Below are positions 14,046 to 30,107 of a stretch of DNA of 30,107 bases, one piece after another. Under the pieces are notes generated by a model. That model saw only the letters and a program-made list of their open reading frames with translations, had not been told where the DNA came from and searched no databases. This stretch comes from a virus (Duplodnaviria > Heunggongvirae > Uroviricota > Caudoviricetes), in IMG/VR virus record IMGVR_UViG_2698536535_000005, positions 1 to 30,107 of that record; one strand, given 5' to 3'. How positions within the stretch are numbered: the stretch's first letter is position 1; the number at the start of each line of letters is the position of its first letter. A program made the translations under genes and the position numbers.

Positions 14046-14399
14046 CGCCACCAGCATAGAGAGAACGCCGTGCCTTACGAGTGGAAGAAACCGGACATGC
14101 TGCGGCGATAACCCGTTGATTAAAAGACGGCTCAAAATTGAGCCGGGTAGCAGTTTGTCTGATTTATGCGTTTAGTTGTTGATATTGCCGATGACGAAAA
14201 ATTGCACTCTGTAGCTAGTGGGCGTTTATGTTGAAAACTGCCGATTCTGATAGGCTTTTATCATGCACTTGCATGAAAACTGCTCTGTGTAGCGGGCAGG
14301 CCTGCTGGGGAGAGCATTGCGCGCTTTAGTAGCAATAAAACACATCAATAAGGCTTTTTATTTTCTTGTATTATAAAATTATACTTATTATCTTGTTGA

Positions 14400-14429
14400 T
14401 TGACAGATAAAAACAAGGGATATGCATAA
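14400..14429 (+). promoter_or_regulatory. candidate sigma70 promoter for the 14433..16852 operon
   Basis: TTGACA (14400..14405), 18-bp spacer, CATAAT (14424..14429); so close to the ATG that either the transcript is near-leaderless or another promoter is used. Confidence 0.25.
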
Positions 14430-14432
14430 TAA

Positions 14433-15122
14433 ATGAACAAATCACCTACTGAGATAATTAATATGCTAAGCGATAAGTTCAATAGTAACTTTCGTGAATG
14501 GCAGGGCATACAAGATAAAAAATTAGATAAAGTAATTATCTCAATTTTCACTCTTAACACGATTGCTGAAATTTTGAATAAAAAGAAAACATCAGTTCAT
14601 CATGATGTTTGTATTAAAATTTTTAGTGAGATTATTGCTGATACGTCATCTTCTTTATATCTTTCTGCCTGTGCCATAGATAAACCAGCTAATATTGTTC
14701 TAAGGAGAGTTTTGGAACTAGGTGTCGCATCTATTTATCTTTGGGATATGCCTCATGTTGTATATTCTTGGAAAAATCATGATGAAGACTTAAGTTTCAG
14801 TGATATGTTGAAGCATATAACAAATCAAGGCTATATAGACTACTTCACAGAAAATGAGAAGATAGGAGGGAAAGTATGTGTTATTGATATGAGAAGAGCA
14901 CAGAAAATTTATGGACAATTAAGTGATATCGTTCATGGAAAAATAACCTCATTTGAAACTGATTTGCCTAATAAGTTCACTTTTGAAAGTGAAGATTGGG
15001 AGAGGTTCATAGGTCTGGCTGAGGTTGTTTTGGGTATGATAATTAATTCCAATATTGTTCGTCATAAGATAAGAAAAGAAGTGCTATCTTCATTTCCTAA
15101 ATCTAGTGAGGTAGTTTTATAA
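14433..15122 (+). CDS. hypothetical protein, component A of candidate two-gene system
   Basis: 229-aa ORF, strongly AT-rich; stop overlaps the start of the downstream ATPase gene (TAATG); no recognisable catalytic motif. Confidence 0.7.
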   Translation: MNKSPTEIINMLSDKFNSNFREWQGIQDKKLDKVIISIFTLNTIAEILNKKKTSVHHDVCIKIFSEIIADTSSSLYLSACAIDKPANIVLRRVLELGVASIYLWDMPHVVYSWKNHDEDLSFSDMLKHITNQGYIDYFTENEKIGGKVCVIDMRRAQKIYGQLSDIVHGKITSFETDLPNKFTFESEDWERFIGLAEVVLGMIINSNIVRHKIRKEVLSSFPKSSEVVL

Positions 15123-16852
15123 TGTCTATGTTAGACACTGAGTTATTACATGCAGCACGTACCGAAGATCTTGAGTTGAAACAGGTCAAACAACTGGCTG
15201 TTCTTGGTGAGTTTGAAAAAGATGTTGTAGCAAAACTAAAAATAGCGGGCTCTCATCTGATTCAGGGTGCCAGAGGAATTGGAAAGTCTATGCTTCTAAG
15301 AGCGGCAGAAGCTGAATTAGATAGTGATTTTCCTGTTAAAAAGATTGTGGGGGTATATGTTAATTTCAAAACCAGTACTTTGCTGGAAGGGGTTAAAGCT
15401 GACAATAAAAATGCATTTCAGATATGGGTAAGCGCTAAGTTACTACAAGCTTTGTACGAAAAGTTGATATTTTTAGATGTCATTCGTGACAATAATAGCA
15501 GTGATCCATTTCAAAGAATTTTTGGGATTAAAACTATAACTGGAATGAAAGATGCTCTACAATCTAAAATTCATCTGCTTCAAAGGTTATCAAGAGATCC
15601 TTCTTCAGATAAATTGTTGAATGAAATTGGAGAGGATTTTTTAGATAAGGTTAATGATATAAGTTATGTAAATGACATCATCAAGGAGATAATTCAAGAA
15701 TACCAACTTAATAGAATTGTTTTTTTATTTGATGAGGCTGCTCATACCTTTATACCAGAACAGCAGGAAATATTCTTCGAAATATTTAAATTGCTTCATG
15801 GCGGTAAAATTGCAGTTAAGGCGGCTGTATATCCGTCAATTACATCGTATGGTAAAAATTTTGAAGTTGGTCAAGATGCCATGATGATAAACCTCGGAGG
15901 ATACGAAACTGGAAATATTGGGCGGGAACGAACACGACGTTTATATCGTGATCTATTAGATAAACGGGTCACACAAGGAGCAGCAAAAAAGAGAATATTG
16001 GCTAAAGGTGATTTGCTAGATCAATGTATTCATCTTTCATCCGGAAACCCTAGAGCATTTCTCCATTTATTTAATAAAGTATATGAGAAAGGTTATACTG
16101 AAAGAGATCTTTTAACTTGCACTCAGGATTATGTCAATCAAGAATTATTACCTTATCATTTAGGGCTTTCAAAACGATTACCTAAGTATTCTCACCATGT
16201 TCGCATTGGACTTGATATTCTTAGGGAGTGTATTATCCCTGAGCTTAGATTGAAAAATAACAGAGAGAAAAAGACTCAAACCCAATCTGCTTTTTTTGTT
16301 CTTCCTCCCGTTATTTCTCCAAATCTTAGATTGTCTCTAGATTTGCTTTGTTATTCTGGTGTTCTTTCCAAGCAAGGGTCCGTGAAGATGTCTAATCGAA
16401 AATCGGGTCAGCGCTACATGGTTAATTTATCATTACTTTTCACTGAAAAAGCATTCGTATCTAATAAGTTCGGGGAGATAATAACACTATTATCTCTCGC
16501 TGATTATAAAGAATTTGGCGCAGCAGATTCTGAATTAGAGCGTTTTTTAGAAAAATTGAAAGAATCAGCTGATGAGTGTCAAACTTGTTCCGCTGAGTTA
16601 CCTGGAGATGCGAAGTTTTGTCCTAAGTGTGGGACACCTGTACCAACAAGGTCAATTGTAGGACAACTTCTTGATGATCCGGTTAGTTGCTTGTCAATTA
16701 GTAACGCAATATGCGACCGAATAAAAGAAACCTATCCTAAAGTGGGTGATATCGTTCACTGTTCGAGGGATGATCTGAAAAAAATACCGTACATTAAAAA
16801 TGTTAGGTCAAAAATAATCAAGAACGCAGCGGATGAATATATCTCAGGCTAA
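15122..16852 (+). CDS. Orc1/Cdc6-like AAA+ ATPase with C-terminal zinc ribbon and HhH (RNA polymerase alpha-CTD-like) domain, component B
   Basis: 576-aa ORF; Walker A GARGIGKS, Walker B IVFLFDEAAH, sensor-2-like SGNPRAF; C-terminal CQTC-x11-CPKC zinc ribbon; last ~60 aa resemble the RpoA alpha-CTD; GAGG Shine-Dalgarno; terminator downstream. Confidence 0.8.
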   Translation: MSMLDTELLHAARTEDLELKQVKQLAVLGEFEKDVVAKLKIAGSHLIQGARGIGKSMLLRAAEAELDSDFPVKKIVGVYVNFKTSTLLEGVKADNKNAFQIWVSAKLLQALYEKLIFLDVIRDNNSSDPFQRIFGIKTITGMKDALQSKIHLLQRLSRDPSSDKLLNEIGEDFLDKVNDISYVNDIIKEIIQEYQLNRIVFLFDEAAHTFIPEQQEIFFEIFKLLHGGKIAVKAAVYPSITSYGKNFEVGQDAMMINLGGYETGNIGRERTRRLYRDLLDKRVTQGAAKKRILAKGDLLDQCIHLSSGNPRAFLHLFNKVYEKGYTERDLLTCTQDYVNQELLPYHLGLSKRLPKYSHHVRIGLDILRECIIPELRLKNNREKKTQTQSAFFVLPPVISPNLRLSLDLLCYSGVLSKQGSVKMSNRKSGQRYMVNLSLLFTEKAFVSNKFGEIITLLSLADYKEFGAADSELERFLEKLKESADECQTCSAELPGDAKFCPKCGTPVPTRSIVGQLLDDPVSCLSISNAICDRIKETYPKVGDIVHCSRDDLKKIPYIKNVRSKIIKNAADEYISG

Positions 16853-16859
16853 AGAAAAG

Positions 16860-16883
16860 CCCCATGTAAATGGGGTTTTTTTT
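16860..16883 (+). terminator. intrinsic terminator
   Basis: CCCCAT-GTAA-ATGGGG hairpin (6-bp stem, 4-nt loop) followed by T8, 8 nt after the ATPase stop codon. Confidence 0.8.
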
Positions 16884-16892
16884 AATATGGGT

Positions 16893-17284
16893 TTATACTT
16901 TTAATGCCCGCCAATGCATTAATTCAATTCTTTGTATTAAATAATTAGATCTATTATAAGCTCTTCTGACTTCATTTCTATCAATATGAGATAATGACGT
17001 CTCTATTGCATCTGAATTAAACCCTGCTTCATTTAAAGTTTTACTCGCAATAGAACGCATCCCATGGTAACTAGCTTTCCACCGTAACCAATTCATTTAA
17101 GAGCAGCATTAGCCGTTTGACTATTCATTGGTTGCATAGGATCGTTTCTGCTAGGGAATACATATTCTCGATGACTACTAATAGGTTTCATCACATCCAG
17201 AAATTCTAATGCCTGTGGAAATAAATGAGCAATGTGTTTCCGGTTAGCCTTCATCCGTTCGGTGGGAATTGCGGAGGGCAGCAT
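16893..17284 (-). pseudogene. integrase remnant (C-terminal part of a P4-type tyrosine recombinase, frameshifted and 5'-truncated)
   Basis: Two adjacent minus-strand ORFs (16893..17096, 17093..17284) together align with the C-terminal ~130 aa of the integrase at 1611..2825 (FPSRNDP vs FPGRNDP; HIDRNEVRRAYNRSNYL vs HVDKNSIRGTYNHAQYL); no N-terminal half is present. Confidence 0.7.
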
Positions 17285-17680
17285 AAATGCAGAGGGAAAT
17301 CTGCAAATCCTAGGCTGGCCTTGCCATAAAGCGAAGACGGCGCGGGAGCATACAAGATGATAATTATTATTAGTAACAAAGGGGAGGGCGGGTCAAATCT
17401 CTGTACCCCTAGCTGTTCTGGACCGCCTGCCTCGTCAAATTTTTACACCCGCAAAATTAAAAAAAATACTTCACGCTGGTGGTTATCCTTGGGCATCCAC
17501 TAGCCTTTCATCATTGACTGCTGGTGAGGCTGAGACTCGAAGAAAAAGAGTGCTAGAGAGTCGGTTTTTGCACAGTTTGGGGTAAGGGAAAATTTATTGG
17601 GGGTACATTTGGGGGTATATATAAAAATGCAATGTAAAAATGTCATTAAATATCAATGCGATTGTTGTTTGTGTTTTGTT

Positions 17681-17696
17681 CCTATTATCGCACCAT
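17681..17696. repeat. attR core: degenerate direct repeat of the thrW 3' end
   Basis: CCTATTATCGCACCAT matches tRNA positions 1429..1445 (CCTATTATCGGCACCAT) except for one deleted G. Confidence 0.6.
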
Positions 17697-18302
17697 CAAG
17701 AAAATCAATAACTTAGCTTAACTTCTCTAAGAAATTGTATCTTCTGTTATCACTTACAAACGCCTATACGTTGTTATGGGCTTTGGTAGTGTAACACGTA
17801 TGGGCGAGTAGTTCCCAGGCTCAACCTCGTAACAAGTTCCTTTGAAGCTGGAAGACGTGCCACCGTCTCTAAACCTTCTACCAAAACTCTTAGCAAGATG
17901 TTCCACACCTGGCGCGGTGTCCAATGATGCTACACGTCGAGATGACGTCGCAGAGGATAAACAGGCTAAATGATGGGAAGAGTTTTAAGTGCAATAGTGG
18001 ATTAAAGCCCACCTCTTCAAAACCTAACTTGATCGGGAAAGAATCAAGCTCTAGCACGGTTTCGTCCACCGGAGTACAACGGGTGCCTGATAAGAGAAGA
18101 ACTGCTAAGACTTCATAGCTTTTGTGAAAAAGCCCTTTTTAGTGGATATGCCTACGGCGCTTATTTTTTGGTATAACCATCAAAGGCGCTTTATGGCTCC
18201 TATTGTCTTGAAAATGTATCTTTACTTGTATTGTGTTTTATGCGTAGTCTCCCTGTGTAGTATGTAACTTGTTAATTTTCATATGAATACAGAGGCAACA
18301 CG

Positions 18303-18455
18303 ATGAAAAACATTGCAGCTATAAAACGTAATAACCGCAAGATTCACGCTCGTAAGTTCCTGTCTACGCCAGAGGGAAAAGCCTGGCTAGAGCGTAAACA
18401 GCGAGAGAACGAAGAAAGAAAACTCCTTAGTGAGTTGAAATGGCTTAAGGATTGA
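18303..18455 (+). CDS. small basic hypothetical protein (50 aa)
   Basis: MKNIAAIKRNNRKIHARKFLSTPEGKAWLERKQRENEERKLLSELKWLKD; AGAGG Shine-Dalgarno 8 nt upstream; below the ORF-track cutoff. Confidence 0.25.
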   Translation: MKNIAAIKRNNRKIHARKFLSTPEGKAWLERKQRENEERKLLSELKWLKD

Positions 18456-19005
18456 ATCACCAGTAGGCGCATAACACATCCAGCAATCAAAGATGTGTTT
18501 GTGCGCCTGATAGTGAAATTATTAAAGTTTTTTAGTTAATGTAGCCATTGCATGAACGATGATCGCTAGTGAATCGATTTTATCTCGAGGGGTAAAATAG
18601 ATGAGGTATATGATGGTAACAATTACAGCTAAAGTAATTGTGGTTCTGCAGGTTTTTAAAATGGATAAGATAAAGCGCATAGATACCCCCTATTGATTTA
18701 ACAACAACAAGGTATCATTTATTTTTTATTGCATGCAATGTGCAAATTTTCACATATAATAGCTTACTATTCACTTTGCATGGTGTCAACAAGATGATGT
18801 GTTGTTTTGTTTGATTTGTTCAAGATAATATTTCATTTTCTCATCTATATAACTTGTGTTTTAGATAATTTCACTAATTGTAAAAGTTACGTATTGCTTA
18901 ATAGCTGCCTTTTTATCTGAAATCGGCGCAAACGTGATCAATGTTTAACGCGAAGATCAGCGGCGTCAGGTCCACGCAGCGACAATTCTCAAATATCAGG
19001 AGGCA

Positions 19006-19563
19006 TTACGCTTCCTGCTCTTTCTTGATACGTTGCACCGTCTGTGTGCTGACACTGAAATCTTTTGCTACGCTCCGAATTGATCCACCATTCGCGAGAG
19101 CGGCAACAATTCCCGCTCGATCAATTGCTTTTCCATTACCACGTTTTGCTATACGTCCAGCGGCCTTAGCTGCGGCAATCCCCTCACGTTGCCGCTCAAG
19201 CATCATTTCACGTTCCATTTGTGCCACTGCTGCAAGCACTGTGAGCATCATATTCCCTGCGGGAGAGTTCTTCCCTGTCTTAAAGTCTTCTTTATGGAAA
19301 TGCACAGACACGCCGCGCTCTGTTAATTGCTCAACCGTTGCCAGTAGGTCGGCTGTATTACGGCAAAGTCGATCAATGCTGTGAACATGCAAAACATCAC
19401 CTTCACGCACATAGTTCATCATTGCCTCAAACTGTGGGCGCTGGGTATTCTTGCCTGACGCTTTATCTTCAAAGACTTTATCAAGAGTTACTCCAGCTAA
19501 TTGACGGTCTGTGTTTTGTTGGACAGTCGATACCCTAATGTATCCAATATTAGCCATTTTCAT
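19006..19563 (-). CDS. serine recombinase (resolvase/invertase family)
   Basis: 185-aa protein; N-terminal catalytic motif GYIRVSTVQQNTDRQ with the nucleophilic Ser; small-recombinase length with C-terminal HTH-like region (GGSIRSVAKDFSVSTQTVQRI). Confidence 0.85.
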   Translation of the reverse strand: MKMANIGYIRVSTVQQNTDRQLAGVTLDKVFEDKASGKNTQRPQFEAMMNYVREGDVLHVHSIDRLCRNTADLLATVEQLTERGVSVHFHKEDFKTGKNSPAGNMMLTVLAAVAQMEREMMLERQREGIAAAKAAGRIAKRGNGKAIDRAGIVAALANGGSIRSVAKDFSVSTQTVQRIKKEQEA

Positions 19564-19584
19564 TTTCCTTCTGTGTTGATTTGT

Positions 19585-19688
19585 GTGTAGTGATTATTGA
19601 TCGTGTTGATTAGGTGTGTAAAGGACTTTTTTCACTACGAAATTCGAAGGTTTTTAGTGTGGTGATTTAGCCTGCTTTATCACTACAC
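19585..19688. promoter_or_regulatory. putative res/recombination site upstream of the serine recombinase
   Basis: Four related half-sites: GTGTAGTGA (19585..19593), TCACTAC (19632..19638, inverted), GTGTGGTGA (19657..19665), TCACTACAC (19680..19688, inverted). Confidence 0.4.
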
Positions 19689-20085
19689 GTCTTGCATGAG
19701 AATCATGTAGTTATGTTTTGGTAAAATTAGCAAGCTATTAAATAGCGTGTTTATTTTGAAAAAATTAATTTTTTCAACACGTGAAAGGAACTTGTTCGAC
19801 AAATAATAGATTGATTTTTAATCAACAATTTCTGATAGTGCTCTGTAAGCCACATTACACAAGGCGCAGCGAAAGTGATGTAAAAGTGAAGAAAGCTAAC
19901 ATTGCACTTTTAAGCTACTTTTCATTGAATTTTTAGTATGGAATTACATAGGGATTAATCATCAATTAATCTTGAATTTAAGCCTGTTTTAGATGTTTAA
20001 TTTTTGATAGCAAGAAACACTTTTAGAAGATCATTGCACAGATGTTATGTGATAAATGGATGTAACGGTAGGTCACTGTGAACTA

Positions 20086-20222
20086 CCCCCCACAGAATTC
20101 TGTTATCCTTAACTTTTAAAGAAATATGCACCCTAACAGAAAACTGTTACCCCAACCCTAACAGAATTATGTTAGACACCCCCACAGAAAACTGTTAGCC
20201 ACCCCTACAGAATTTTGTTACC
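20086..20222. repeat. five palindrome-containing iterons (consensus about CCCYAACAGAAWWCTGTTA)
   Basis: Units at about 20086, 20129, 20154, 20180 and 20203; the last four tandem with a ~24-bp period; each contains ACAGAAnnCTGT-type inverted repeat (ACAGAATTCTGT is a perfect palindrome). Confidence 0.7.
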
Positions 20223-20909
20223 TATTAGATCAACTATCAAACTACAATTAAATTATCTTTTATAAATTCTTTTATCTTTAAAGAATAATTATAGGGATAC
20301 CCGTTAGGGGAGTCTTCGACTATCCCTTAATCTATTGGCATTCGCCAGAACCTTGCACAAGTTAGAGTGTTAGTCGTTAGACTGCTTGTCATAACACATA
20401 GTTTTTTGTTTGTTGATGTTAGTTAGTAGATCTATGTTCGCTAATGCCGCTCACAACGAATATGTAATCTACTATGTGCAAATAGCCTACGGCTTGCGTA
20501 AGGCTAAATAGTCTTGCGCTGTGCGCAGAACGATAATTAACTAACTACCATCTAACGATCATCAATCTATTTAAGAGAAAATCTATTGTGCAATACTCTG
20601 ACGAGTGCAATAACCTTGTGTGCTACGCGTTAGCGATGTTAGCACATAGACACAGACAACAACCAACAACAAACAAAAAAGAATGGTTTTAGTAGTTGAA
20701 GGTTAAATAAGATTCTACCGCTTAAATCAAGCCGTAGGCGAGCTAAACAGCCATTACATAAGGGAATGTATTGTTTTTATCAAAACCTCGTTAGAACGCG
20801 TTTTAGAGCGTTTTAGACAATAATAAAGAATAGCACTACACATGAGAGCACGAATTGCTAAGAAATATCATAACTTACTGAAAATCATCAATATTTATAT
20901 GGATAGGGG

Positions 20910-20938
20910 TTGACAAAAGCTTTTAGTCGTGGTAAAGT
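20910..20938 (+). promoter_or_regulatory. candidate sigma70 promoter for the rightward small-gene operon
   Basis: TTGACA (20910..20915), 17-bp spacer, TAAAGT (20933..20938), about 120 nt upstream of the 21059 ATG, which has an AGGAGG Shine-Dalgarno. Confidence 0.4.
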
Positions 20939-21058
20939 AATATTAGGGACAGAAAACATTCTTATCCTCTAAGTAATTAAACCAATGCACCGCACTTTGA
21001 AGCCCAAGGCTTGCAAGGTGTCTTTTTCTTTTAACCAAATAGAATAGGAGGTTAATTA

Positions 21059-21259
21059 ATGAAGTATTACACTCCACAGGATGTAATCGAAGCCTGGAAA
21101 CGTGGTGAGATCAATCGTTTTAAAGTAAGGATGAACAGGAACACAGCGCGACGCTGTGGTTATCCAGAGCGTGAAAAATGCTTTGACGATGCACTAAAAA
21201 TTATTGATGAATTAAGAAAAAATGAAAAAGGATCTGAAAAAGAATCTGAAACAGAGTAA
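21059..21259 (+). CDS. small hypothetical protein
   Basis: 66-aa ORF with perfect AGGAGG Shine-Dalgarno. Confidence 0.5.
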   Translation: MKYYTPQDVIEAWKRGEINRFKVRMNRNTARRCGYPEREKCFDDALKIIDELRKNEKGSEKESETE

Positions 21260-21278
21260 AGAAGAGAAGGAGAAAACT

Positions 21279-21449
21279 ATGAGCGAAACTACAGAAAAGA
21301 AAAGACAACCACGCACTTGCTTTCATATTCCTGATGAAGTATTTCAGGTGTTGTTTAAAGAAGCCAGAAGTAAACGTATCACTGTTACAGATTACATTCT
21401 TGATATGTTGAAAAGAGAGGCTGAAACACTCTCAAACAAAAGCAAGTGA
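21279..21449 (+). CDS. ribbon-helix-helix-like small DNA-binding protein (tentative)
   Basis: Start taken at the ATG preceded by AAGGAG (track ORF starts 21222 and overlaps the upstream gene); segment RTCFHIPDEVFQVLFKEARSKRITVTDYILDMLKRE fits the RHH strand-helix-helix pattern. Confidence 0.45.
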   Translation: MSETTEKKRQPRTCFHIPDEVFQVLFKEARSKRITVTDYILDMLKREAETLSNKSK

Positions 21450-21502
21450 TTTTTATCACCATAGTAGCGCCGTAGAGCGTGATTACATCAAGGAGATTTT
21501 TA

Positions 21503-22072
21503 ATGATTAATGAAGAACAATTTGTAAAAGTTCCTATGTGGATTCTAAAAATAAGCCAAGTAAACGGGCATAAATTTACAGATAGTGCTAAAAACCTTTA
21601 CTGCTATTTGAGAGGGTTTGATCGTGCATTTCCCTCTTACGCTAAGATAGGCGATGTTTTTGGCATAACACCAAGAGCAGCAGAAGAAAGGGTTAAGAAA
21701 TTGCTCGAAATGGGATTAATTATAAAAGATGCACGACCAGGAAGCTCTAACCTTTATCGAGTGCTTGATATTCCAAAAGGAGAATCATCACTACCTGATC
21801 CTTCTGAGAAAGAAGACGAATCTAATGAAATATTGAATGTTTCCGAAATCATCGTTGAAGAAGAAACACAGGAATCAGAGTTCCCTGAGCGGCCCGAAAT
21901 TTTTACTTGGCTTCTTTCCCTTGATAAGAAGAAACCACCGCACGAAGAAACAGAAGATTTTGTAAAACGTGCATTAGATTCAAAGAATATCTATCTTGAG
22001 AAACAGGCTTTTCACGATCTGATAATATCTCTAAGAGAAAAAAGTGAAATATACGATTCAATACCATTCTAA
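21503..22072 (+). CDS. winged-helix/HTH protein with acidic C-terminal region (possible replication initiator or regulator)
   Basis: Start at the ATG preceded by AGGAG (track ORF starts 21479); N-terminal PMWILK...NLYCYLRGF...IGDVFGITPRAAEERVKKLLEMGLI is HTH-like; acidic tail. Confidence 0.5.
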   Translation: MINEEQFVKVPMWILKISQVNGHKFTDSAKNLYCYLRGFDRAFPSYAKIGDVFGITPRAAEERVKKLLEMGLIIKDARPGSSNLYRVLDIPKGESSLPDPSEKEDESNEILNVSEIIVEEETQESEFPERPEIFTWLLSLDKKKPPHEETEDFVKRALDSKNIYLEKQAFHDLIISLREKSEIYDSIPF

Positions 22073-22081
22073 GGAGAATAA

Positions 22082-22351
22082 ATGACTTATAACATCACTA
22101 TAGGAAACAAAACTATTGAAATAACTGAAAGCGGATACAACATTTTAAAAGCTATTTTGGACATAGAGTTCTCACCCCCGACAGTGGTTAGCTTTTGTAG
22201 TTTAGGCGGCTACAGCGCACAACATGTGAATCATTGGTTAAACCATTTTACATCGTTCGGTGTGCTGGATTATGAAGGGATTAACCACACTACATTTCGT
22301 CTTTTGAAATTAAACAAAGATTTTGAATTGTTTATCACAAACAATCAATAA
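22082..22351 (+). CDS. hypothetical protein
   Basis: 89-aa ORF with AAGGAG Shine-Dalgarno. Confidence 0.5.
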   Translation: MTYNITIGNKTIEITESGYNILKAILDIEFSPPTVVSFCSLGGYSAQHVNHWLNHFTSFGVLDYEGINHTTFRLLKLNKDFELFITNNQ

Positions 22352-22447
22352 CAACAGATCGGGCAATACATATGGCAAATGCATTTATGGCGATATTCAT
22401 CGTAACAATGGTATCAAGTTTTTATAATCCACATAAAAAGAAGGAAA

Positions 22448-22831
22448 ATGGGAAGAAAGAAAAAGAACAACTTAAAACGTATTGAAAAAAACAGTAACTT
22501 CAATTCAACAAGACAACGTCCACCGACACACACCAATAACGAAATTCCAGGGGAAGAGATAATATTTATTCTTGAAACAGAATCCCCTGAATTAAGCGAT
22601 GAAGAACAAGAAATAATCAAATCAATGCCAGGCGTTTACTTTCGCCCAAGAACAAGAAAACAAACAATAATTTCTGATGGCACTCTGAAACGTTGGCAGC
22701 TTTTAGGGTTTAGCTCCTATCATCATTTTTTGGGATTTAACGCTTTCAATAATTGTGTAGGTGGTGCATCGGAAGTCGATCTGATGGCTCATTTAGAAGA
22801 TACATTAGCTTCTAACAAACGCTCTAACTAA
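22448..22831 (+). CDS. hypothetical protein
   Basis: 127-aa ORF with AAGGAA Shine-Dalgarno; basic N-terminus. Confidence 0.5.
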   Translation: MGRKKKNNLKRIEKNSNFNSTRQRPPTHTNNEIPGEEIIFILETESPELSDEEQEIIKSMPGVYFRPRTRKQTIISDGTLKRWQLLGFSSYHHFLGFNAFNNCVGGASEVDLMAHLEDTLASNKRSN

Positions 22832-22846
22832 TAAAAGGATGGTCGT

Positions 22847-23092
22847 ATGTATAAGCGCCCAATGAAAATATTCGAAAAAGGAAAAATAATGATTGGCTAT
22901 ATTCAAGAAACACAATTATTTCAGATGATCCTGTCTGATGCAAAAAACTATGCTGAGTTAATCCGACTGGCAAAAGAAACAGAAGACTACGAAGCATTAG
23001 AGCGTTATCGTGATGAAGTGCTGACGCTCAAGACACCTTTTAACATCGTATTGAATATGATTAATGATGCATTACAAGGAGAAGCCGCATAA
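22847..23092 (+). CDS. hypothetical protein
   Basis: 81-aa ORF with AAGGA Shine-Dalgarno. Confidence 0.45.
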   Translation: MYKRPMKIFEKGKIMIGYIQETQLFQMILSDAKNYAELIRLAKETEDYEALERYRDEVLTLKTPFNIVLNMINDALQGEAA

Positions 23093-23403
23093 TGGAAGAA
23101 GATATTAGCAATGCAATGGAACAACTTTTAGATCTGACTATCTCACTACAAACAAGAATAAATCAAGCCTATTCAGATTTATGCGATTACACGCTCTCTC
23201 AATGCGTTATTAGCTTAATGAAGGTGAATGTAAGCCTTGACGATTTTATCTCTCTGGTGAGCGATTTAGAGCTAATTGAGGACGATGCCAAGATGTGCAC
23301 TCAAACCATCACAGACACCGCCAGCACGTTAAAGGCTGCAAGTGAAGAGATTCAGCAATTAGTAGATGATTTAGCAAAAAGTGCTATTCCCTCTAAATGG
23401 TAA
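23092..23403 (+). CDS. hypothetical acidic helical protein
   Basis: 103-aa ORF; start overlaps the previous stop (TAATG). Confidence 0.45.
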   Translation: MEEDISNAMEQLLDLTISLQTRINQAYSDLCDYTLSQCVISLMKVNVSLDDFISLVSDLELIEDDAKMCTQTITDTASTLKAASEEIQQLVDDLAKSAIPSKW

Positions 23404-24391
23404 TGAAAATCATTTGCATTTATATAATAAAAATGTTATATTAGTATTAAGGGTAGATAAAAAGGTTTTGACTGGTGTTAATCCTTCTACTGTCATAAAT
23501 CCCTGCATATGGAAGGTGATAGCCTCAAGGGTTGAGTGGCATTAACCTCTAACAAATATTACCTTCCATCTCTCAAGAAGTTTTAGAATAATCATAACTC
23601 CCTCTTTGATTGTTGATTGTTTCTACGTTGTGTTGATGAATGTTGTTAGGCATTGTGCTTAATTTTGATAAAAGCGGGTAGGTGTTATCTCCTTGCCCTT
23701 CCCGCTCTTATTTTTCATCTATGCTTATCCTAAAGCTCCTTATTTTGTCCGAAAACATTAAAGAGCCTTACACTGATAGTTATATTTTATAACTATTTAC
23801 TAACATCATTAAACTCTTATTTAATGACAGAAGTTAGTAACAGAATAATCTATTAAGTTGTTGTCAAAAAACTATCATCTGCATAGCGTTAGCCGCAAGC
23901 AGAGAGAGTTTAGCTAAGAATTGTGCAATAACCTTTGGAAATATTGATAGCAAAACGGGTTTTATAGACTGCAAATCTATAATCTTTGGTTGTAAAAACG
24001 CTTTTTCTGAAACGGTAGATTATTGTTGGTGTAGTTAATCCCTATTAAAATTTAATCTGTGAGTAGATTGGAATAGTGATTCCTTAAAATCTGACTGGTG
24101 CATCCACACCATGAAAGATAGCGGTTAGCCACCGCACCCGAATAGATATTCCTGATTGATTCCGCATGTTTTCCTAAGAGCATGTTTTCAGGAATATCTG
24201 TTCACCCTTTAAACCTATCTTTAAGCATGTTTAATAAGCATTCTTAGAGATACGTTTAAAACCTCCTCAAGGTTTTACTTATCGCTGTGTATTGCCCGAC
24301 ACGTTAATAAATCCCCCTCGCTATTCTCAGATTGAACCTCTTATAGCCTGGGGGATTTATTAAATTCCAACATAATGGAATCGTTATATAA

Positions 24392-24601
24392 ATGAAACAA
24401 GAAATTATCCTGAAATATGGCAATGAAAAGTTAACACTAACTGAAGATGTGTTGAATGCTACAGCCTACGCGCTTGGTATCACTCCCACAGAATTAAAGA
24501 AACAGTGTGAACGTCTTTATAAGGCTGAAAGCAATAAACCATCTCACCAAGATTTGATTAATGCTAAAGCTCAACAAATCAAACAATCTAAGGAAAAATA
24601 A
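24392..24601 (+). CDS. small hypothetical protein
   Basis: 69-aa ORF; stop overlaps the start of the next gene. Confidence 0.4.
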   Translation: MKQEIILKYGNEKLTLTEDVLNATAYALGITPTELKKQCERLYKAESNKPSHQDLINAKAQQIKQSKEK

Positions 24602-24975
24602 TGGCTATTTTAAAATTAAGCGATGTTTTCCTACATCGTAAAAGCATCACTGACGTAGTGAGCTATGCAACCGACCCTTACGCGGCTGTAGAAAGCAAAA
24701 AATTTGCAGCACTTGCACAAGATGTAACGTGCGGCGACCTCATTGATTCATCCGGCGCTAAATATGTTAGCGGCGCTGATGTTCTTGTCGTTGTGTCTGA
24801 CTTCGTAACTGCTGATTCAAATAAAACAGTTAACGTGCTTCGTGCTAATGCCGGACTCGTTTGCATCAAAGCTGATGCCCTGAATGCCGAAGGCGCTGTA
24901 AAAGAAGCTGCTATTGCAGCTCTCGCTGCTAAAGGCTTCCAGCTTGAAGGCTTCCACTCTGTTTTCACATCTTAA
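24601..24975 (+). CDS. hypothetical protein, possible virion decoration or scaffold-type protein (speculative)
   Basis: 124-aa ORF immediately upstream of a ~340-aa gene, the lambda D-E type arrangement; Ala/Val-rich; no direct motif evidence. Confidence 0.5.
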   Translation: MAILKLSDVFLHRKSITDVVSYATDPYAAVESKKFAALAQDVTCGDLIDSSGAKYVSGADVLVVVSDFVTADSNKTVNVLRANAGLVCIKADALNAEGAVKEAAIAALAAKGFQLEGFHSVFTS

Positions 24976-24991
24976 GAAGGAATAAATAATA

Positions 24992-26020
24992 ATGATTATC
25001 GGAAATGAAGTGGTTGATCTTGCTCCACTGTTCGAATTAAACGACTCACGCAATTACCTACTGTCTACTCTGGATTTTACTGATCCTGTGCCTGTAGAAA
25101 GTCACAAAGTGGCTGTTTCCCAGCTTATCGAGAGCAATGAATCTCTGTTCAACCATCCTACAAGCCGTTTTAGCTCTGAGCATAACGTTACTAAGCGTGA
25201 GAACGGGGAAGAATATCTTATTGAAATCCCGTACTTTTTAAGGGAAGACCTGATCAAACCGCAGGACGTGCAAGGCAAACGCAAAGCCGGAAGCTCTATT
25301 GAAGAAACACTGCCGGATCTGTATGCGGAATATATCGCTAAACACAATGTTGCATTCCAGCGCACTAAAGAAAGCATCCTCGCGGCTTCTCTGTTCTCTG
25401 GCAAGACACACACCCCGAAAACTGACGATGTTCTGATCGATTACAGCACTCTGTTCGGTGTGTCTCCAATGACTGCAACCGTTGACGCATCCAGCACCAA
25501 CACAATGACCGTATTCAAGCAATTTGATCAGATGCATACGGATATGATTGCTAAGGCACAAAGCCAGGCTGCAACCATTGAGCGTGTTGTTGTGTTCTGT
25601 AAACCTGCGGCATTCAACGCTATTCGTTACAGCGTTGGCATGGTTAATGCGTTCCAGTATGCAAGCCCTGTAGACGATGCAAACGTGGTGTTTAATGTGC
25701 GTTCTCTGCTGCCTGGTGTAACTACTTTCACCATTCCAGGAACTAACATTGACCTGATCAAAGTGACTGATCCGCTGCTGCTGGCACATATGACCGCTGA
25801 CGCTGTAGCTATTCCTAAACTTGCTAAGGGGGCAGGTGTTTACCAAGCTATTTTTGGTGCGCCTTCCAGTTCATTCGATCTGCTGTCTCAAGGCGCTAAA
25901 GAGTATTACAGCTATGCTTTCGAATCGAATCGCGGCGACGCAGTGCACGTAGTGACCGAGAATAGCTCGCTTGTGGTTAACCACGGTGTTGGCTTCTCTG
26001 TGCAGATCACAGTAGCGTAA
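24992..26020 (+). CDS. hypothetical protein, possible major capsid-like protein (speculative)
   Basis: 342-aa ORF with strong AAGGAA Shine-Dalgarno; size and position after a ~120-aa gene resemble the lambda gpD/gpE arrangement; similarity to gpE not demonstrable by eye. Confidence 0.55.
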   Translation: MIIGNEVVDLAPLFELNDSRNYLLSTLDFTDPVPVESHKVAVSQLIESNESLFNHPTSRFSSEHNVTKRENGEEYLIEIPYFLREDLIKPQDVQGKRKAGSSIEETLPDLYAEYIAKHNVAFQRTKESILAASLFSGKTHTPKTDDVLIDYSTLFGVSPMTATVDASSTNTMTVFKQFDQMHTDMIAKAQSQAATIERVVVFCKPAAFNAIRYSVGMVNAFQYASPVDDANVVFNVRSLLPGVTTFTIPGTNIDLIKVTDPLLLAHMTADAVAIPKLAKGAGVYQAIFGAPSSSFDLLSQGAKEYYSYAFESNRGDAVHVVTENSSLVVNHGVGFSVQITVA

Positions 26021-26172
26021 AAAGTGTTAAAGACGTTCCCCTACGTCTGGAAATAATCGGGGCAATAAGGGTAAGGGATAATCATATAAGCAAAATATGC
26101 GCTGTCTCTTGCCCTTTTTGTTTTTCTACTGTCTACAAACCTAAATAAAAATATATATGTGAGAGAAAACCA

Positions 26173-26370
26173 ATGAACACAGAAAATTCACAGGCATTAA
26201 TTCTTAAATCTGTAAAAGAACTGGCAGCTATTAGCGATGACTCAATAATCAATGTCAGTGCCTTATGCAGAATGCTTTCAATTGATGCAAATAATGTGCG
26301 TCAGCGTGTCTTTCAGACTGGATGTAGCACTTTCGAAGCAATCCAATATTATTGCTCTAAAAAACAATAA
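26173..26370 (+). CDS. small hypothetical protein
   Basis: 65-aa ORF between two larger genes on the same strand. Confidence 0.4.
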   Translation: MNTENSQALILKSVKELAAISDDSIINVSALCRMLSIDANNVRQRVFQTGCSTFEAIQYYCSKKQ

Positions 26371-26404
26371 CAAATAACAATCATAATACAGGGAAACAAT
26401 TAAC

Positions 26405-28246
26405 ATGTTAGAGCTAAACGTGGCACGCCTCTCGAACGTTGTCACCTTCGAAGTTAACCGACCATCATTAGAGAAAGCAAAAGCAGAAGTAGAAAAACTT
26501 CGTAAACAAATGGCGGCGGTGAAAGATATAGAATTGCGTGTTAAGACACATAAACAATCAACCGCTAAAGCAAAAAAAGACGTAGACGATATTGCTAAAA
26601 AGCAAGCACAGGCTGATAAAGCTAATGCTAAAGCACAATTAGCCGCTCAACGTGTAGTTGCAAGAGAACAAAAAGCCCTGGCAGCACGCAAAGAGAAGGC
26701 AGAATTAAAGCTTTTAGACGTTGGAGCAAGCATTAGTGCAATGCACCGTCTTTCTGTAGCGGAACAATATAAAGCTATTGCACAGGCTAGAGAAATTGCC
26801 CTCCAATATGAAAGAGGCGCTATTAGTCTGGCACGTATGAATAGCCAAATGAAACGCCTACAACAGCAACAACGTAAGATTAATGGCAATCGTAACGCTC
26901 ACGCTAAAGCCTATGCACCTGTTAAGGGTAGCGGGAGTATTGGCGGCGGTGCTGCGGCTGTTATGCTGGGTGGCTTAGGCGCTGGCGCTACGTATATGGC
27001 TATGAGCAAAGCCTCTGAATTTGTTACTAACAGCTTTGCGAATGCTGAAACGCTGGGTGAATTGTATAGCCGTGCGAAGCTGGGCGGTGTAGACGTTAAC
27101 CAGATGAACAATATTGAGCAATGGGCCTACAAAAACGGCGTTGATTCAATGATGGGCGAACAAGGTCGTAGGAAGTATCTCGATCAGATGAAAGATGTAC
27201 GGGAGAAGGCTACTAAATCTTATGATGAGGCTGAATATGTAGTTGATAAGAAAACTGGTAAAGGAGAATGGAAGGGCGGCGATAGCGGCATCAATACTTT
27301 AATGAATGAAGGATTCCTAACTAAAAAGGATCTAAAAGACTTTGCTGATAATCCGGCTGGTCTGGTTAGTAAAGCAGTTCAGGGAATGGTAGCTAAAGGC
27401 TATTCAGATGCACAAATCGGTAGTCGTCTGGAAGATCTGGCTGATGATTTGATGCTCACCTCTAAATACTGGACACGCTCCGCTAAAGAAGTGGAACAAT
27501 CAGCACGAGAACAACGAGAATCAGGGCGCTGGGTAACGCAGGCACAACAGGAAAGCGTTATTAAATTCCGTGAACTGAATAATGCACTTAGTGGGCTTTC
27601 TGACTCACAAGGGATCGCCTTTGTTGATGGCTTTATGAAATCTCTTGATCCGAAAGTGATTGAAGAGTTTAAAAAGAGCATGGTTGCAATGCTGCCAATG
27701 TTTACCAAATTAGGCGAGGCTATCGGCGGATTGGTTAACGCCGTAATGAAAACAATCAACTGGCTGATGAAAAACGACGAGAAGACGGAAGCTATTCAGA
27801 AGAATTTAGGGGATGCACCGCCACTATCTAACGAAGGAATGAAGCAGAATCTTTCTAATCTCACTCCTGATCAATATAAAGGCGCTGGCACCGGAACAAC
27901 TAAGCCAGATAACAGCAATTCCCTGGTTAACACTATTAAAAGCTGGTTTATGCCAGAAGAAACGGTAGGTGGGGCGCAGGCTGTAAATCAATACAGTCTC
28001 GAAGGACAAAATATTGCAAATCTGAAACAGAGTGCAGCACAACAAGCTTTCAAGGCTCCTTCTTACACCTTTGCACCTGTTATTAACTTCAATCCAGAAT
28101 TACAAGTAAATGCAGAAGTGCCGCTAACTATCGAATCAGACACCGGACGATTGAGCGAATTTATCGACTTCAAATCAAAGGCATCTTCCGCTGAGTTTAG
28201 CAAGCTATTAACGCTGGGTGTTATGTCAGGCGGGTCAACCTATTAA
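26405..28246 (+). CDS. large coiled-coil protein with Gly-rich hydrophobic segment (tape-measure-like or internal virion-like; function unknown)
   Basis: 613-aa ORF; N-terminal ~130 aa Lys/Ala-rich coiled coil; GSGSIGGGAAAVMLGGLGAGATYMAM hydrophobic Gly-rich segment; no enzymatic motif. Confidence 0.6.
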   Translation: MLELNVARLSNVVTFEVNRPSLEKAKAEVEKLRKQMAAVKDIELRVKTHKQSTAKAKKDVDDIAKKQAQADKANAKAQLAAQRVVAREQKALAARKEKAELKLLDVGASISAMHRLSVAEQYKAIAQAREIALQYERGAISLARMNSQMKRLQQQQRKINGNRNAHAKAYAPVKGSGSIGGGAAAVMLGGLGAGATYMAMSKASEFVTNSFANAETLGELYSRAKLGGVDVNQMNNIEQWAYKNGVDSMMGEQGRRKYLDQMKDVREKATKSYDEAEYVVDKKTGKGEWKGGDSGINTLMNEGFLTKKDLKDFADNPAGLVSKAVQGMVAKGYSDAQIGSRLEDLADDLMLTSKYWTRSAKEVEQSAREQRESGRWVTQAQQESVIKFRELNNALSGLSDSQGIAFVDGFMKSLDPKVIEEFKKSMVAMLPMFTKLGEAIGGLVNAVMKTINWLMKNDEKTEAIQKNLGDAPPLSNEGMKQNLSNLTPDQYKGAGTGTTKPDNSNSLVNTIKSWFMPEETVGGAQAVNQYSLEGQNIANLKQSAAQQAFKAPSYTFAPVINFNPELQVNAEVPLTIESDTGRLSEFIDFKSKASSAEFSKLLTLGVMSGGSTY

Positions 28247-28293
28247 TCATCACTGTGGGGCGGTTTAGCCCCCTTAAATAAGGATTACAAATT

Positions 28294-28971
28294 ATGGCAA
28301 TGGGTCCGTTAACCATTGGTCGCCCGACTGAGGCGAAAATCAACAGCACAAGCAACGATAGCAACGGTAGAACAACTAAAGGGGGTAACGGCTTTGCGAT
28401 CATTACCTCTAACCTCGGCAGTGGTGCAAATGCTGCTTACAATGACTACCAGGCATTATCATTTGATAGCGTGGAATCGACGAAAATTAGCCGAAATGCA
28501 GACGTTACAAGCTATGCCGTCGAATCAGGATCAGAAGTTAGTGATCATGTTCAAATACGGAATAACAAGTTCACATTACAGGGGCGTATCTCTGAAACAG
28601 TATTGAAGCTCAATCCCGATATGATTAAGAATGCGGGAATTAACGGCAATAGACGTATGCTTATGCTTGAATACCTAAATCAGTTGATGGACAGTCGCCA
28701 ACCTTTCCTACTTGTCACTGAGTTAAAAAATTATGACAACGTTGTGTTAGTTGGCATGTCTTACGAAGAAGAAGCAAGCGAAAGCCTATTGTTTACTCTT
28801 GATTTTGAGCAAATCCGTCTTGTCTCTAAAGCAACTACAAGCGCAATTGCGGTAAAAACAGCACCAAATAAATCTGTAGGAGGTCAGGTTAAAATGCAGG
28901 TAAATACAACAGAACAGAAAAATCAAAAAAGCCCAGGGCAAGACGTTGTAACGCCAGTATTTAAACAATAG
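28294..28971 (+). CDS. hypothetical protein
   Basis: 225-aa ORF with AAGGA Shine-Dalgarno; convergent with the downstream integrase. Confidence 0.55.
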   Translation: MAMGPLTIGRPTEAKINSTSNDSNGRTTKGGNGFAIITSNLGSGANAAYNDYQALSFDSVESTKISRNADVTSYAVESGSEVSDHVQIRNNKFTLQGRISETVLKLNPDMIKNAGINGNRRMLMLEYLNQLMDSRQPFLLVTELKNYDNVVLVGMSYEEEASESLLFTLDFEQIRLVSKATTSAIAVKTAPNKSVGGQVKMQVNTTEQKNQKSPGQDVVTPVFKQ

Positions 28972-29012
28972 CCTTAAACACCTATGAAACGCTCTGTAAC
29001 GAGATAATCATA

Positions 29013-29044
29013 AAAGAGGCATTAGTCTATATTGAAGCCTCTTT
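29013..29044. terminator. possible bidirectional terminator hairpin between convergent genes
   Basis: AAAGAGGC/GCCTCTTT 8-bp stem with a 16-nt loop; weak T tail; low support. Confidence 0.25.
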
Positions 29045-29051
29045 ATTACGT

Positions 29052-30050
29052 CTATAGCGTTGTTTTACGCCTTAAATTTGATTTTTTATTGATTGATAAG
29101 CCTTTCTCTATTTCAGGGTAGCGTAAAAGCTCAATATATTTTTTAAGCTCTACTGGAGAAGCTGCATTCTTGCTATATGTGCGGAATGTTTCTGTATTGC
29201 CGCGCTGATGGCCCAAAATTAAAGCTATGCGGTCCTCTGGAATTTGATTTCGATCAAGAAGCTGTGCTACTCCGTGTCTCAGAGAATGAAACACTTTCCT
29301 TTCTGTTCCCTTTTCCCCTAAAGCCTTTCGTTTAGCTCTTGTAAATCGTTGTGTATGCCACGTAGAGCGTTTACCGTCAGCACGTTCTGTAATGCTGGCG
29401 TGATAGAACAAAAAGCCATTGTGAGGCTTTTCACGAAGAGATAACACCAATGGAGTGATAAGGCTATGCACAGGCACAAGACGTGCCGCAGCTTTCGTTT
29501 TTCCCTGTGTGATTTCAAAACACAGCACACCTTCGATCTCTTTCACATCGTCTATTGTGAGACTTGCTATCTCATTGATCCGCATACCTGTATATAAACC
29601 GATAAGACACAAAGCCGTCATTTCTTTGTTTTCTGCTGAATTACCGGAAAATACTTGCAACACCTGCAATAGCTCTTTGTTAGAAAATGCCTCGTAGCTC
29701 TCTCTACTTTGTGCCACATCAAGCCTATGCCCTCGCCAGGGGGAGAGCGCCCTTTCTGGCGCATCGTGGTAACGTGATGAAGCTAATTCCCATAGCTGGG
29801 CCATTGGGCTGATATAATTTGCAATTGATTGTTGTGAAAGAGTTTTTTGCATATGTTCAATCCAGCCTGTAACAGTGGTGCGGCTTACATCTTGCAATGC
29901 AATATCAGGCTTTTTACGGTAGGAGAGAAACATCTCTACCGCTTTTCTTGCCTTAGCTAAAGTGGCTGGCTTCTTCTTCGTGCTGTTAATTGTCAGGTAG
30001 ATTTCAAGAATTTTAAGCAATGACGGACACGAAGACGCTGTATCTTGCAT
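29052..30050 (-). CDS. tyrosine recombinase / phage integrase (different family from the thrW-proximal integrase)
   Basis: 332-aa minus-strand ORF; C-terminal catalytic region with HSLRHGVAQLL (H-x-x-R) and a downstream tyrosine; lacks the long P4-type N-terminal arm-binding domain. Confidence 0.85.
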   Translation of the reverse strand: MQDTASSCPSLLKILEIYLTINSTKKKPATLAKARKAVEMFLSYRKKPDIALQDVSRTTVTGWIEHMQKTLSQQSIANYISPMAQLWELASSRYHDAPERALSPWRGHRLDVAQSRESYEAFSNKELLQVLQVFSGNSAENKEMTALCLIGLYTGMRINEIASLTIDDVKEIEGVLCFEITQGKTKAAARLVPVHSLITPLVLSLREKPHNGFLFYHASITERADGKRSTWHTQRFTRAKRKALGEKGTERKVFHSLRHGVAQLLDRNQIPEDRIALILGHQRGNTETFRTYSKNAASPVELKKYIELLRYPEIEKGLSINKKSNLRRKTTL

Positions 30051-30107
30051 TCTGGTAGCTGTTTTGGCGTATTTAGCCTTACTGCGTAACTGAACCGCCC
30101 CGGGTTT

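Follow-up and report, generated by a model that had tools for sequence, protein, structure and literature searches.

The window analyzed here, i.e., the whole 30,107-nt stretch of the IMG/VR virus record IMGVR_UViG_2698536535_000005, harbors toward its right end a block of six open reading frames (ORFs) that includes four predicted virion genes and is located within an integrative element, below also named the island, at the tRNA gene thrW. Coordinates are those of the window unless another locus is named, and are collected in Table 1. An initial annotation of this DNA described the block as a structural gene cluster of a candidate satellite, i.e., an element that supplies head proteins of its own and depends on a helper phage for packaging and tails; all six ORFs are found on the plus strand where that annotation had placed them.

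The 342-amino-acid (aa) protein matches the Pfam family Phage_cap_E (PF03864) over residues 19-341 with an E-value of 6.3e-18 (65.3 bits, where the cutoff is 22.9), and the profile of its family matches the solved major capsid protein (MCP) of phage phi92, gp124, which has the HK97 fold (1.6e-17, residues 2-341). These two matches bear out the capsid assignment, which had been made from size and synteny, and identify the protein by homology as an MCP of the lambda-gpE/HK97 type. It is ~25% identical to the MCPs of Stephanstirmvirinae phages. Members of the island MCP family are found in Escherichia, Klebsiella, Citrobacter, Enterobacter, Cronobacter, Dryocola and Serratia, and their length is constant (342-345 aa).

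For the 124-aa protein no direct family match was found by sequence, the hhalign comparison with phi92 gp123 was not significant, and a sequence-based profile search of the PDB returned chance matches only. A hidden Markov model search of the full library yielded remote relatives, two of which match PHROG 2680 (head decoration), and a second AlphaFold2 model was built from an alignment deepened with these relatives. This model has a predicted local distance difference test score (pLDDT) of 82.4 and superseded a first one, obtained from a 19-sequence alignment of close homologues, which had a pLDDT of 59 and gave non-significant fold matches. In Foldseek searches the deeper-alignment model matches decoration-size chains of the Sf14 and Bas63 capsids (PDB 9c2d, 9ncf; E 9e-4, template-modeling scores of 0.60-0.66) and BFVD entries named “head decoration protein” (E 3.4e-6). 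The decoration fold expected by the initial annotation is thus found in the predicted structure, which supports the assignment of the 124-aa protein as a head decoration (also named cement) protein that would be the counterpart of phi92 gp123 in fold and position.

The remaining two large genes of the block are related to tail genes. The 613-aa protein matches PHROG 16051 (tape measure) at 6.3e-31 and the solved phi92 gp134 at 4.5e-20; it is 28-30% identical to Stephanstirmvirinae tape measure proteins (40-42% for the Klebsiella variant), and is identified by this homology as a tape measure protein. Ala, Lys, Gln, Arg and Glu abound in its first 175 residues, and the Gly-rich hydrophobic segment that had been noted earlier is indeed present at residues 175-202 (GSGSIGGGAAAVMLGGLGAGATYMAMSK). 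The 225-aa protein, assigned on similar grounds as a Dit-like tail tube initiator, matches the Pfam family Dit_like (PF21821) at 1.6e-27, the solved phi92 gp135 at 1e-53 and the chain 9cuy_K, labeled “tube initiator”, at 3.4e-10, and is 52% identical to Phapecoctavirus homologues. In phi92, gp135 is the hexameric tail tube initiator at the center of the baseplate, where it resides beside the C-terminus of the tape measure protein (PMC13450770). The tube initiator gene is clade-specific, and it is not found in Klebsiella or Serratia islands.

In phi92 the genes are ordered as gp122 (scaffold), gp123 (cement), gp124 (MCP), then genes for neck, sheath, tube and chaperones, followed by gp134 (tape measure) and gp135 (tube initiator). 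The island order of cement, MCP, tape measure and tube initiator is that of gp123, gp124, gp134 and gp135, and the island block is by this comparison the phi92 gene order minus its middle. The initial annotation had likened the 124-aa and 342-aa gene pair to the arrangement in lambdoid phages; the block instead mirrors that of phi92/phAPEC8-like virulent myophages. The likeness to the phi92 virion (PDB 21uy, 21vq; PMC13450770) includes folds or families as well as gene order, at an identity that is undetectable for the cement protein, ~25% for the MCP, ~28% for the tape measure protein and ~49% for the tube initiator, whereas the island has none of the neck, sheath, tube and chaperone genes that lie in between, and its tape measure protein is composed of 613 aa rather than 659 aa.

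The structural cluster is syntenic in the ~40 loci fetched for comparison. Across related loci, the ratio of nonsynonymous to synonymous substitution rates (dN/dS) is 0.10-0.13 for the MCP gene, 0.16-0.27 for the tape measure gene, 0.03-0.13 for the 225-aa gene and 0.17-0.20 for the 124-aa gene, values that indicate purifying selection on all four structural genes rather than chance ORFs. Shine-Dalgarno sites, described initially as strong, do exist, but they are moderate and fall short of the consensus: AAGGA for the 124-aa gene, GAAGGA for the 342-aa gene, AGGGA for the 613-aa gene and AAGGA for the 225-aa gene. The two small ORFs of the block also recur by position, the 69-aa gene as one of 66-74 aa in Klebsiella and Serratia islands and the 65-aa gene as one of 62-67 aa in every island examined. 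No PADLOC model fits the structural proteins.

A 1-kb stretch free of ORFs (23403-24392) precedes the block and ends with a 21-nt inverted repeat (24304-24363, 90% complementary, 18-nt spacer) located ~30 nt 5' of the first structural gene; this repeat is a possible terminator or control element for the morphogenesis genes.

Table 1. Features of the thrW element and of the neighboring island in the window
Feature	Position	Strand	Basis or remark
Left attachment site	17681-17697	.	degenerate copy of thrW 3' end (TCCTATTATCGCACCA); left element boundary
Conserved non-coding left end	17698-18453	.	no supported ORF, no Rfam match
Terminus mimic, candidate pac-like terminase site	18918-18997	+	core 18947-18997 = AACGCGAAGATCAGCGGCGTCAGGTCCACGCAGCGACAATTCTCAAATATC
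Small serine recombinase, resolvase/invertase type, 185 aa	19006-19563	-	Pfam Resolvase 1.1e-38; PHROG 125 DNA invertase 2.3e-62
Iteron-like array, candidate replication origin	20084-20213	.	five copies of CCCnACAGAAnnCTGTTA
Two early genes: 66 aa; 57/75-aa Arc-like ribbon-helix-helix	21059-21449	+	weak PHROG 582 match, 1.8e-3
Replication initiator (predicted), winged-helix DNA-binding N-terminus	21503-22072	+	PHROG 270 1.2e-8; Pfam HTH_36 6.8e-4
Four small genes, 89, 127, 81 and 103 aa	22082-23403	+	no significant family match
69-aa ORF, first in structural block	24392-24601	+	no family match; no Shine-Dalgarno
Head decoration (cement) protein (predicted)	24601-24975	+	AlphaFold2 model, Foldseek matches, position of phi92 gp123
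Major capsid protein, lambda gpE family, HK97 fold (by homology)	24992-26020	+	Pfam PF03864, phi92 gp124 profile match
65-aa ORF directly 5' of tape measure gene	26173-26370	+	no family match
Tape measure protein homologue	26405-28246	+	PHROG 16051, phi92 gp134
Tail tube initiator (Dit-like, by homology), accessory gene	28294-28971	+	Pfam Dit_like, phi92 gp135
Tyrosine integrase, cut by window end, full gene 425 aa	29052-30107	-	Pfam Phage_integrase 2.1e-17
P4-type integrase, neighbor island	1611-2825		
AlpA, neighbor island	3979-4176		
AntA antirepressor, neighbor island	4254-5054		
D5-type primase-helicase, neighbor island	7640-9445		
ProQ/FinO protein, neighbor island	9817-10359		

The thrW element and its relatives

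Similarity to every related island begins at window position 17681. In E. coli CAU16175 the same element (99.8% identity, window 17680-30090) is found alone between thrW and yagP, where it abuts thrW and is bounded on either side by the 16-mer ACTCCTATTATCGGCA, at a spacing of 12,965 bp. The element in the window runs past position 30107 and its right repeat is located outside; KL53 and CAU16175 contain the full integrase gene as well as attR, and there the right attachment site is found ~140-160 bp beyond the integrase start. As judged from these repeats, the structural cluster resides inside a discrete 12,965-bp att-flanked integrative element at thrW. In K-12, the same thrW-yagP interval harbors an unrelated cryptic prophage, CP4-6.

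Of 5426 complete E. coli genomes, 572 contain DNA that matches the family. Another E. coli variant, the MCP of which is 73% identical, interrupts the LysR-family gene ygfI and is bounded by perfect 52-bp repeats at a distance of 12,336 bp, and Klebsiella copies adjoin tRNA-Gly(ccc). The compact layout recurs in E. coli, Klebsiella, Serratia and other enterobacteria. A universal core of the ~40 loci is composed of the 127-aa gene, homologues of which are found in all island loci that span its region, together with the cement, MCP, tape measure and integrase genes. The exception is the most distant locus, L037 (IMGVR_UViG_2869437394_000005), where just the MCP (29% identical) and the adjoining integrase were detected and which may represent a sister family. 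A search of genome contigs with a single-protein query returned three close relatives only.

The non-coding left end is 97-99% identical in islands with MCPs that are 72-73% identical, and 72-82% identical in distant clades. Its ~750 bp and the 98%-identical integrase form one conserved block in the circular form of the element. In the excised circle this left end adjoins the integrase gene, and it therefore probably comprises the attP arm and the control region of the integrase. A scan of 13500-30107 against Rfam returned nothing at E-values up to 0.1. A 12,344-bp Logan contig (L039) was considered as a circular form of the element; the contig merely breaks at the att repeat and is not proof of one. 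The small serine recombinase is missing from some family members, and an invertible switch run by this enzyme was considered and rejected, as no inverted blocks are found among the ~40 loci.

Among element ORFs of at least 60 aa, searches of Pfam and PHROGs gave no match to a terminase or portal protein, nor to a small terminase, prohead protease or head-tail adaptor. Sheath, tube and other baseplate genes are also missing from the element, and ~3.8 kb of it is free of ORFs of at least 60 aa. The initial annotation had stated that no ORF in this part of the window was large enough for a terminase or portal. None of the ORFs is one, but large ORFs do exist in the low-GC part, of 576 aa and 613 aa, where the former (15122-16852) encodes an ORC/CDC6-like ATPase and is located outside the element.

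Replication module and a candidate helper-terminus mimic

The left half of the element harbors an iteron-like array followed by two early genes and a predicted replication initiator (Table 1). A sigma-70 consensus promoter, TTGACA-N17-TAAAGT, can be read at ~20910-20938, 5' of the two early genes, which are kept in Klebsiella islands at 55-61% identity. When the left half of the element was compared to phage genomes using blastn, the segment 21462-21816 (355 bp) was found to be 99.2% identical to Phapecoctavirus Mt1B1_P17. At the protein level, residues 9-113 of the initiator ORF are identical at 104 of 105 positions to residues 1-105 of Mt1B1_P17 gp053 (L041:4042-5028). This phage protein is composed of the N-terminus of the island initiator (Rep), a second winged-helix domain and a C-terminal endonuclease (PHROG 681 2.4e-18; Pfam MUG113/T5orf172). 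Phages Muut (L048:1399-2397) and Inny (L049:1438-2541) encode the same nuclease with other first domains, each 82-89% identical to a different island Rep type. The second nuclease domain, which the three share, is 85-93% identical to ORFs found at the Rep position in two IMG/VR loci (L012:6728-7006, L016:7245-7544), and these Odn-like nucleases may thus be bivalent.

The iteron sequence varies with the Rep type (ACAGAAnnCTGTTA, TGATACCCCTATCAA, CTAGGAAATGAGTTC and ATTACACAGGG among the window, L009, L012, L015, L016 and L038), an observation that is consistent with swappable initiator-origin modules. The same architecture as that of gp053 is found in a nuclease of phage ICP1, Odn, which cleaves the origin of PLE, an element that resembles phage-inducible chromosomal islands (PMC8263062). 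The initiator appears to be the target module of a phage Odn-like nuclease, and these nucleases are apparent countermeasures against the island. The islands in CAU16175 and L010 are ~170 bp longer than that in the window near ~20748 (L040 9070-9214). In L040 the 11-mer GGCGAGCTAAA is found at 9059 and 9232, i.e., 173 bp apart, which suggests that the extra ~170 bp is a tandem duplication 5' of the early promoter.

A second link to the same phages is found between the left end and the serine recombinase gene, where ~18920-19002 can be aligned to upwards of 60 Phapecoctavirus genomes, with 81% identity across 85 positions. The core (18947-18997) aligns with nucleotides 1-51 of phage WPEC1 (85.7% identity over 56 aligned nt), where the WPEC1 record begins with AACGCGAATTTTCGGGCCGTCAGG and the window from 18947 reads AACGCGAAGATCAGCGGCGTCAGG. 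The ~29 nt located 5' of the core match the sequence ahead of the right repeat copy in WPEC1. In those records that include terminal repeats (328 bp in WPEC1, 309 bp in KKP 3954), the repeat boundary is located inside the match. For the phi92-like phage BME3, a 342-bp terminal repeat was determined using PhageTerm (PMC12210895), and this repeat is confirmed in the database record; the WPEC1 and BME3 records both open at AACGCGA. The BME3 junction, where GAGGTGCTT is followed by AACGCGATTTTCAGCGCCCCCCGAT, is nearly identical to the motif of the other E. coli island clade, and identical over ~40 nt that span the cut site. The window carries a Phapecoctavirus-like variant of the motif, while other islands carry a phi92-like (BME3) variant.

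Each E. coli-type island harbors one copy of the motif, which is always found on the plus strand, 5.1-6.8 kb 5' of the MCP gene, and the motif type is uncoupled from the MCP clade. Looser versions (AACGCGAA-N-AATATC) are found at the same place in distant clades. We consider the odds to be about even that 18947-18997, together with the ~29 nt on its 5' side, functionally mimics the end of the helper genome, such that the helper terminase cuts and packages the island, and that exchangeable Phapecoctavirus and Justusliebigvirus variants set the genus of the mobilizing phage. If so, packaging would be solved by copying a terminal-repeat boundary, not by encoding a small terminase, and the helper range would be set by three swappable modules, i.e., the terminus mimic, the Rep/origin pair and the tail proteins.

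In the phages themselves, the WPEC1 repeat boundaries (L043 323-335, L044 13660-13680) are preceded by similar sequences, AGAAGGTGCT ahead of CAAC and AAGAAGTGCTT ahead of AACG, and at the BME3 boundary (L045 335-350) AGTAGGCT precedes CAAC, which hints at a common terminase cut-site consensus at phage repeat boundaries. A T4-type late-promoter motif common to island and phage was considered and rejected: the promoters of the phi92 structural genes are sigma-70-like, and a special motif in common was not evident.

Proposed satellite mechanism and alternative explanations

The best phage relatives of the recognizable structural proteins are virulent 90-150-kb myophages, most clearly Stephanstirmvirinae or allied phages, and the comparisons indicate recent, repeated genetic exchange between the island and Stephanstirmvirinae. 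We regard it as probable that a 13-kb thrW satellite of ~150-kb virulent Stephanstirmvirinae myophages has its morphogenesis module in this cluster; the most likely helper of this copy is a Phapecoctavirus (phAPEC8-like). The satellite proposal of the initial annotation is sustained by an att-flanked element that lacks terminase and portal genes, by the links to helper phages, and by the same conclusion reached in a published study (PMC10448857). As to the division of labor that was proposed, i.e., own heads with packaging and tails from a helper, the own capsid and cement proteins and the missing terminase and portal agree with it, while the tape measure protein and the tube initiator are self-encoded and do not. 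Capsid remodeling is what we infer for an element known from its sequence alone.

Infection by the helper would trigger excision of the island and replication from the iterons. The island MCP and cement protein would then form capsids smaller than the T=13 shell of the helper, suited to ~13 kb of DNA, on the helper portal; if volume is scaled from a T=13 shell with 148 kb, ~13 kb would correspond to a T number near 3-4. Terminase supplied by the helper would recognize and cut the mimic at 18947 and package island DNA, and the island tape measure protein and tube initiator would either join helper tails or redirect tail assembly. The net outcome would be transfer of the island at the expense of the helper, and we propose that the origin-directed phage nucleases evolved because this transfer is costly to the helper.

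Several points weigh against this scheme. Excision, replication, packaging and transfer are inferred from sequence, and small capsids have not been observed. The island MCP is just ~25% identical to any helper MCP and the island has no recognizable scaffold, protease or portal; it is therefore unclear how a capsid would be nucleated on the helper portal. To our knowledge, no role is known that requires a satellite-borne tape measure protein and tube initiator. As to the terminus mimic, Klebsiella, Serratia and some other clades gave no match to the strict motif. The copy covers the left terminal-repeat boundary alone, and a search of the island for the helper right repeat boundary, or for a second sequence that resembles a cut site, revealed nothing convincing. 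Furthermore, the phage termini are defined by the layout of database records together with one PhageTerm statement rather than by read mapping.

An alternative explanation is that the element is purely a defense island, where the capsid, cement, tape measure and tube-initiator proteins act as decoys that derail assembly of the helper and the island itself is neither packaged nor transferred by phages. The phage nucleases aim at the island replicon, so the island evidently harms phages, and the tape measure protein and tube initiator have no obvious role in transfer. Defense systems that interfere with assembly are also known, e.g., Tai, as outlined in PMC11364771. We nevertheless consider a defense function without transfer unlikely, given that the island carries a copy of a helper terminus in genus-specific variants as well as a replicon of its own, that the lengths of the MCP and cement genes are strictly kept across genera, and that at least three integration sites with intact repeats imply horizontal spread. 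In addition, interference and transfer coexist in PLE, such that the two are not strict alternatives.

It is very improbable that the block is what remains of a decaying temperate prophage, i.e., a cryptic, CP4-6-like remnant that retains a few structural genes. The location at thrW, a classic hotspot for prophages and islands where the element is found in tandem with other island remnants, and the presence of only a minority of structural genes would fit such an origin. However, the same minimal gene set is found in the same order in Escherichia, Klebsiella, Serratia and other genera, the reading frames and att repeats are intact, and dN/dS is 0.03-0.27. The structural genes derive from a strictly virulent lineage of 90-150-kb myophages, and no similarity between the element and CP4-6 of K-12 was found; because Stephanstirmvirinae-type phages do not lysogenize, the island is not their decayed prophage. 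The own MCP and decoration protein also raise the question of a capsid-forming phage-inducible chromosomal island (cf-PICI), where the island alone would build complete, DNA-filled capsids and the helper would contribute tails only. We give this explanation hardly any weight. The island lacks a portal, small and large terminase subunits, prohead protease, head-tail adaptors, alpA and Pri-Rep, and the remaining small ORFs (65-127 aa) are too small for a portal or terminase. Moreover, the island encodes tail proteins, which cf-PICIs do not, and the same exclusion was made in PMC10448857.

The satellite family is already known from a sequence-based prediction of 2023. Barth, Dunham, Seed and co-workers (NAR Genom Bioinform 5:lqad076; PMC10448857, Fig. 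8, Table S6) started from the Odn-like nucleases of the coliphages Inny, Muut and Mt1B1_P17 and, using sequence analysis only, described 224 putative satellites in E. coli and relatives. These satellites share with the island a suite of decoration, MCP, tape measure, baseplate and integrase genes, integration at tRNA or lysR genes, and modular RepA N-terminal domains that are mirrored by phage nucleases, and they lack cf-PICI signature genes. The island belongs to this family as judged from its Rep-domain homology, its gene suite and its att repeats by a tRNA gene, and Table S6 of PMC10448857 lists CP047378.1 (CAU16175), the island of which is 99.8% identical to that in the window. In that study there is no mention of a packaging site or terminal repeats, whereas a terminus mimic is found here. 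For the second RepA_N domain of the nucleases it reports no satellite match, while matches are found here in L012 and L016. The gene named “baseplate” there is assigned here as a tube initiator, and relatives are found here beyond E. coli. Within the literature searched, the terminus mimic with its two variants, the second-domain match and the tube-initiator assignment via the 2026 phi92 structure appear to go beyond the earlier work.

PLE of Vibrio cholerae and its phage ICP1 offer a functional likeness: an integrative island that depends on a virulent T=13 myophage and has a modular initiator and origin, opposed by a phage counter-nuclease in which a captured initiator DNA-binding domain is linked to a T5orf172-type nuclease (PMC8263062). 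Small capsids of PLE are formed from the helper coat protein by means of an external scaffold, TcaP, as outlined in PMC10002752. PLE encodes no MCP, tape measure protein or tube initiator, unlike the island. Its integration is catalyzed by a large serine recombinase. The island integrase is of the tyrosine type and no scaffold was recognized, which sets the island apart from PLE by the gene content described. By analogy, the element would work like PLE, including an Odn-type arms race; by gene content it is not a PLE, cf-PICI, PICI or P4-like satellite.

A satellite-encoded homologue of the capsid protein that alters capsid size is found in SaPIbov5 (Ccm; PMC8569155). Ccm is closely homologous to the capsid protein of its helper and assembles together with it, whereas the identity of the island MCP to any helper MCP is just ~25%. 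The island MCP is paired with a cement protein that the island itself encodes, which points to a separate shell and not to co-assembly. Psu of P4 is a decoration protein of a satellite that changes or stabilizes small capsids. An external scaffold that resembles Sid of P4 is not found in the island, nor does the element harbor a primase/helicase or families that match the hallmarks of P4-like satellites (Sid, Psu, Delta and the alpha primase-helicase), and the terminus motif matches Stephanstirmvirinae rather than P2. With cf-PICIs the island shares an own MCP and the use of a helper for remaining functions; the differences include, besides the missing genes listed above, presumed helpers that are virulent, not temperate.

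The genetics of E. coli is far better than that of Vibrio cholerae, and an E. coli counterpart of the ICP1-PLE pair is in prospect. Culture collections include the presumed helpers (phAPEC8-, phi92-, Inny- and Muut-like phages), the therapeutic use of which is under consideration. A working E. coli pair would allow tests of how small capsids are built on a foreign portal, of the purpose of the tail genes and of replicon swapping driven by nucleases, and the terminus-mimic motif offers a testable handle on packaging specificity. With DNA of the family in about one-tenth of complete E. coli genomes, the islands could affect the host range and efficacy of therapeutic phages.

Further observations on related islands and the surrounding DNA

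In Klebsiella and Serratia islands (L002-L005), truncated integrase fragments (205 and 67 aa, 183 and 63 aa) are found to the left of the small early genes. The Klebsiella islands also carry a Dam methylase, and their left half gave no blastn match in the phage collection.

A separate island (~1445-14000) is located beside thrW, outside the element. This neighbor harbors both alpA and Pri-Rep (1611-9445), and by its layout it is PICI/P4-like, such that two satellite-like elements appear to reside in tandem at one tRNA gene. The thrW element itself was considered as the right end of the K-12 prophage CP4-6 (yagJ-intF) and this was rejected; blastn and tblastn comparisons with MG1655 284000-298500 (L050) revealed no similarity, i.e., only the locus is shared.

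Between the two islands, a low-GC remnant (14000-17680) harbors two genes and integrase fragments, with features that span 14433-17284. The latter are two frameshifted pieces of a P4-type integrase on the minus strand (16893-17284). One of the genes encodes a 229-aa protein with a weak DUF5677 match, and the other encodes the 576-aa ATPase, which has a P-loop, a C-terminal zinc ribbon and weak NCBIfam anti-phage and Sll1717 matches; the pair is a possible two-gene defense system.

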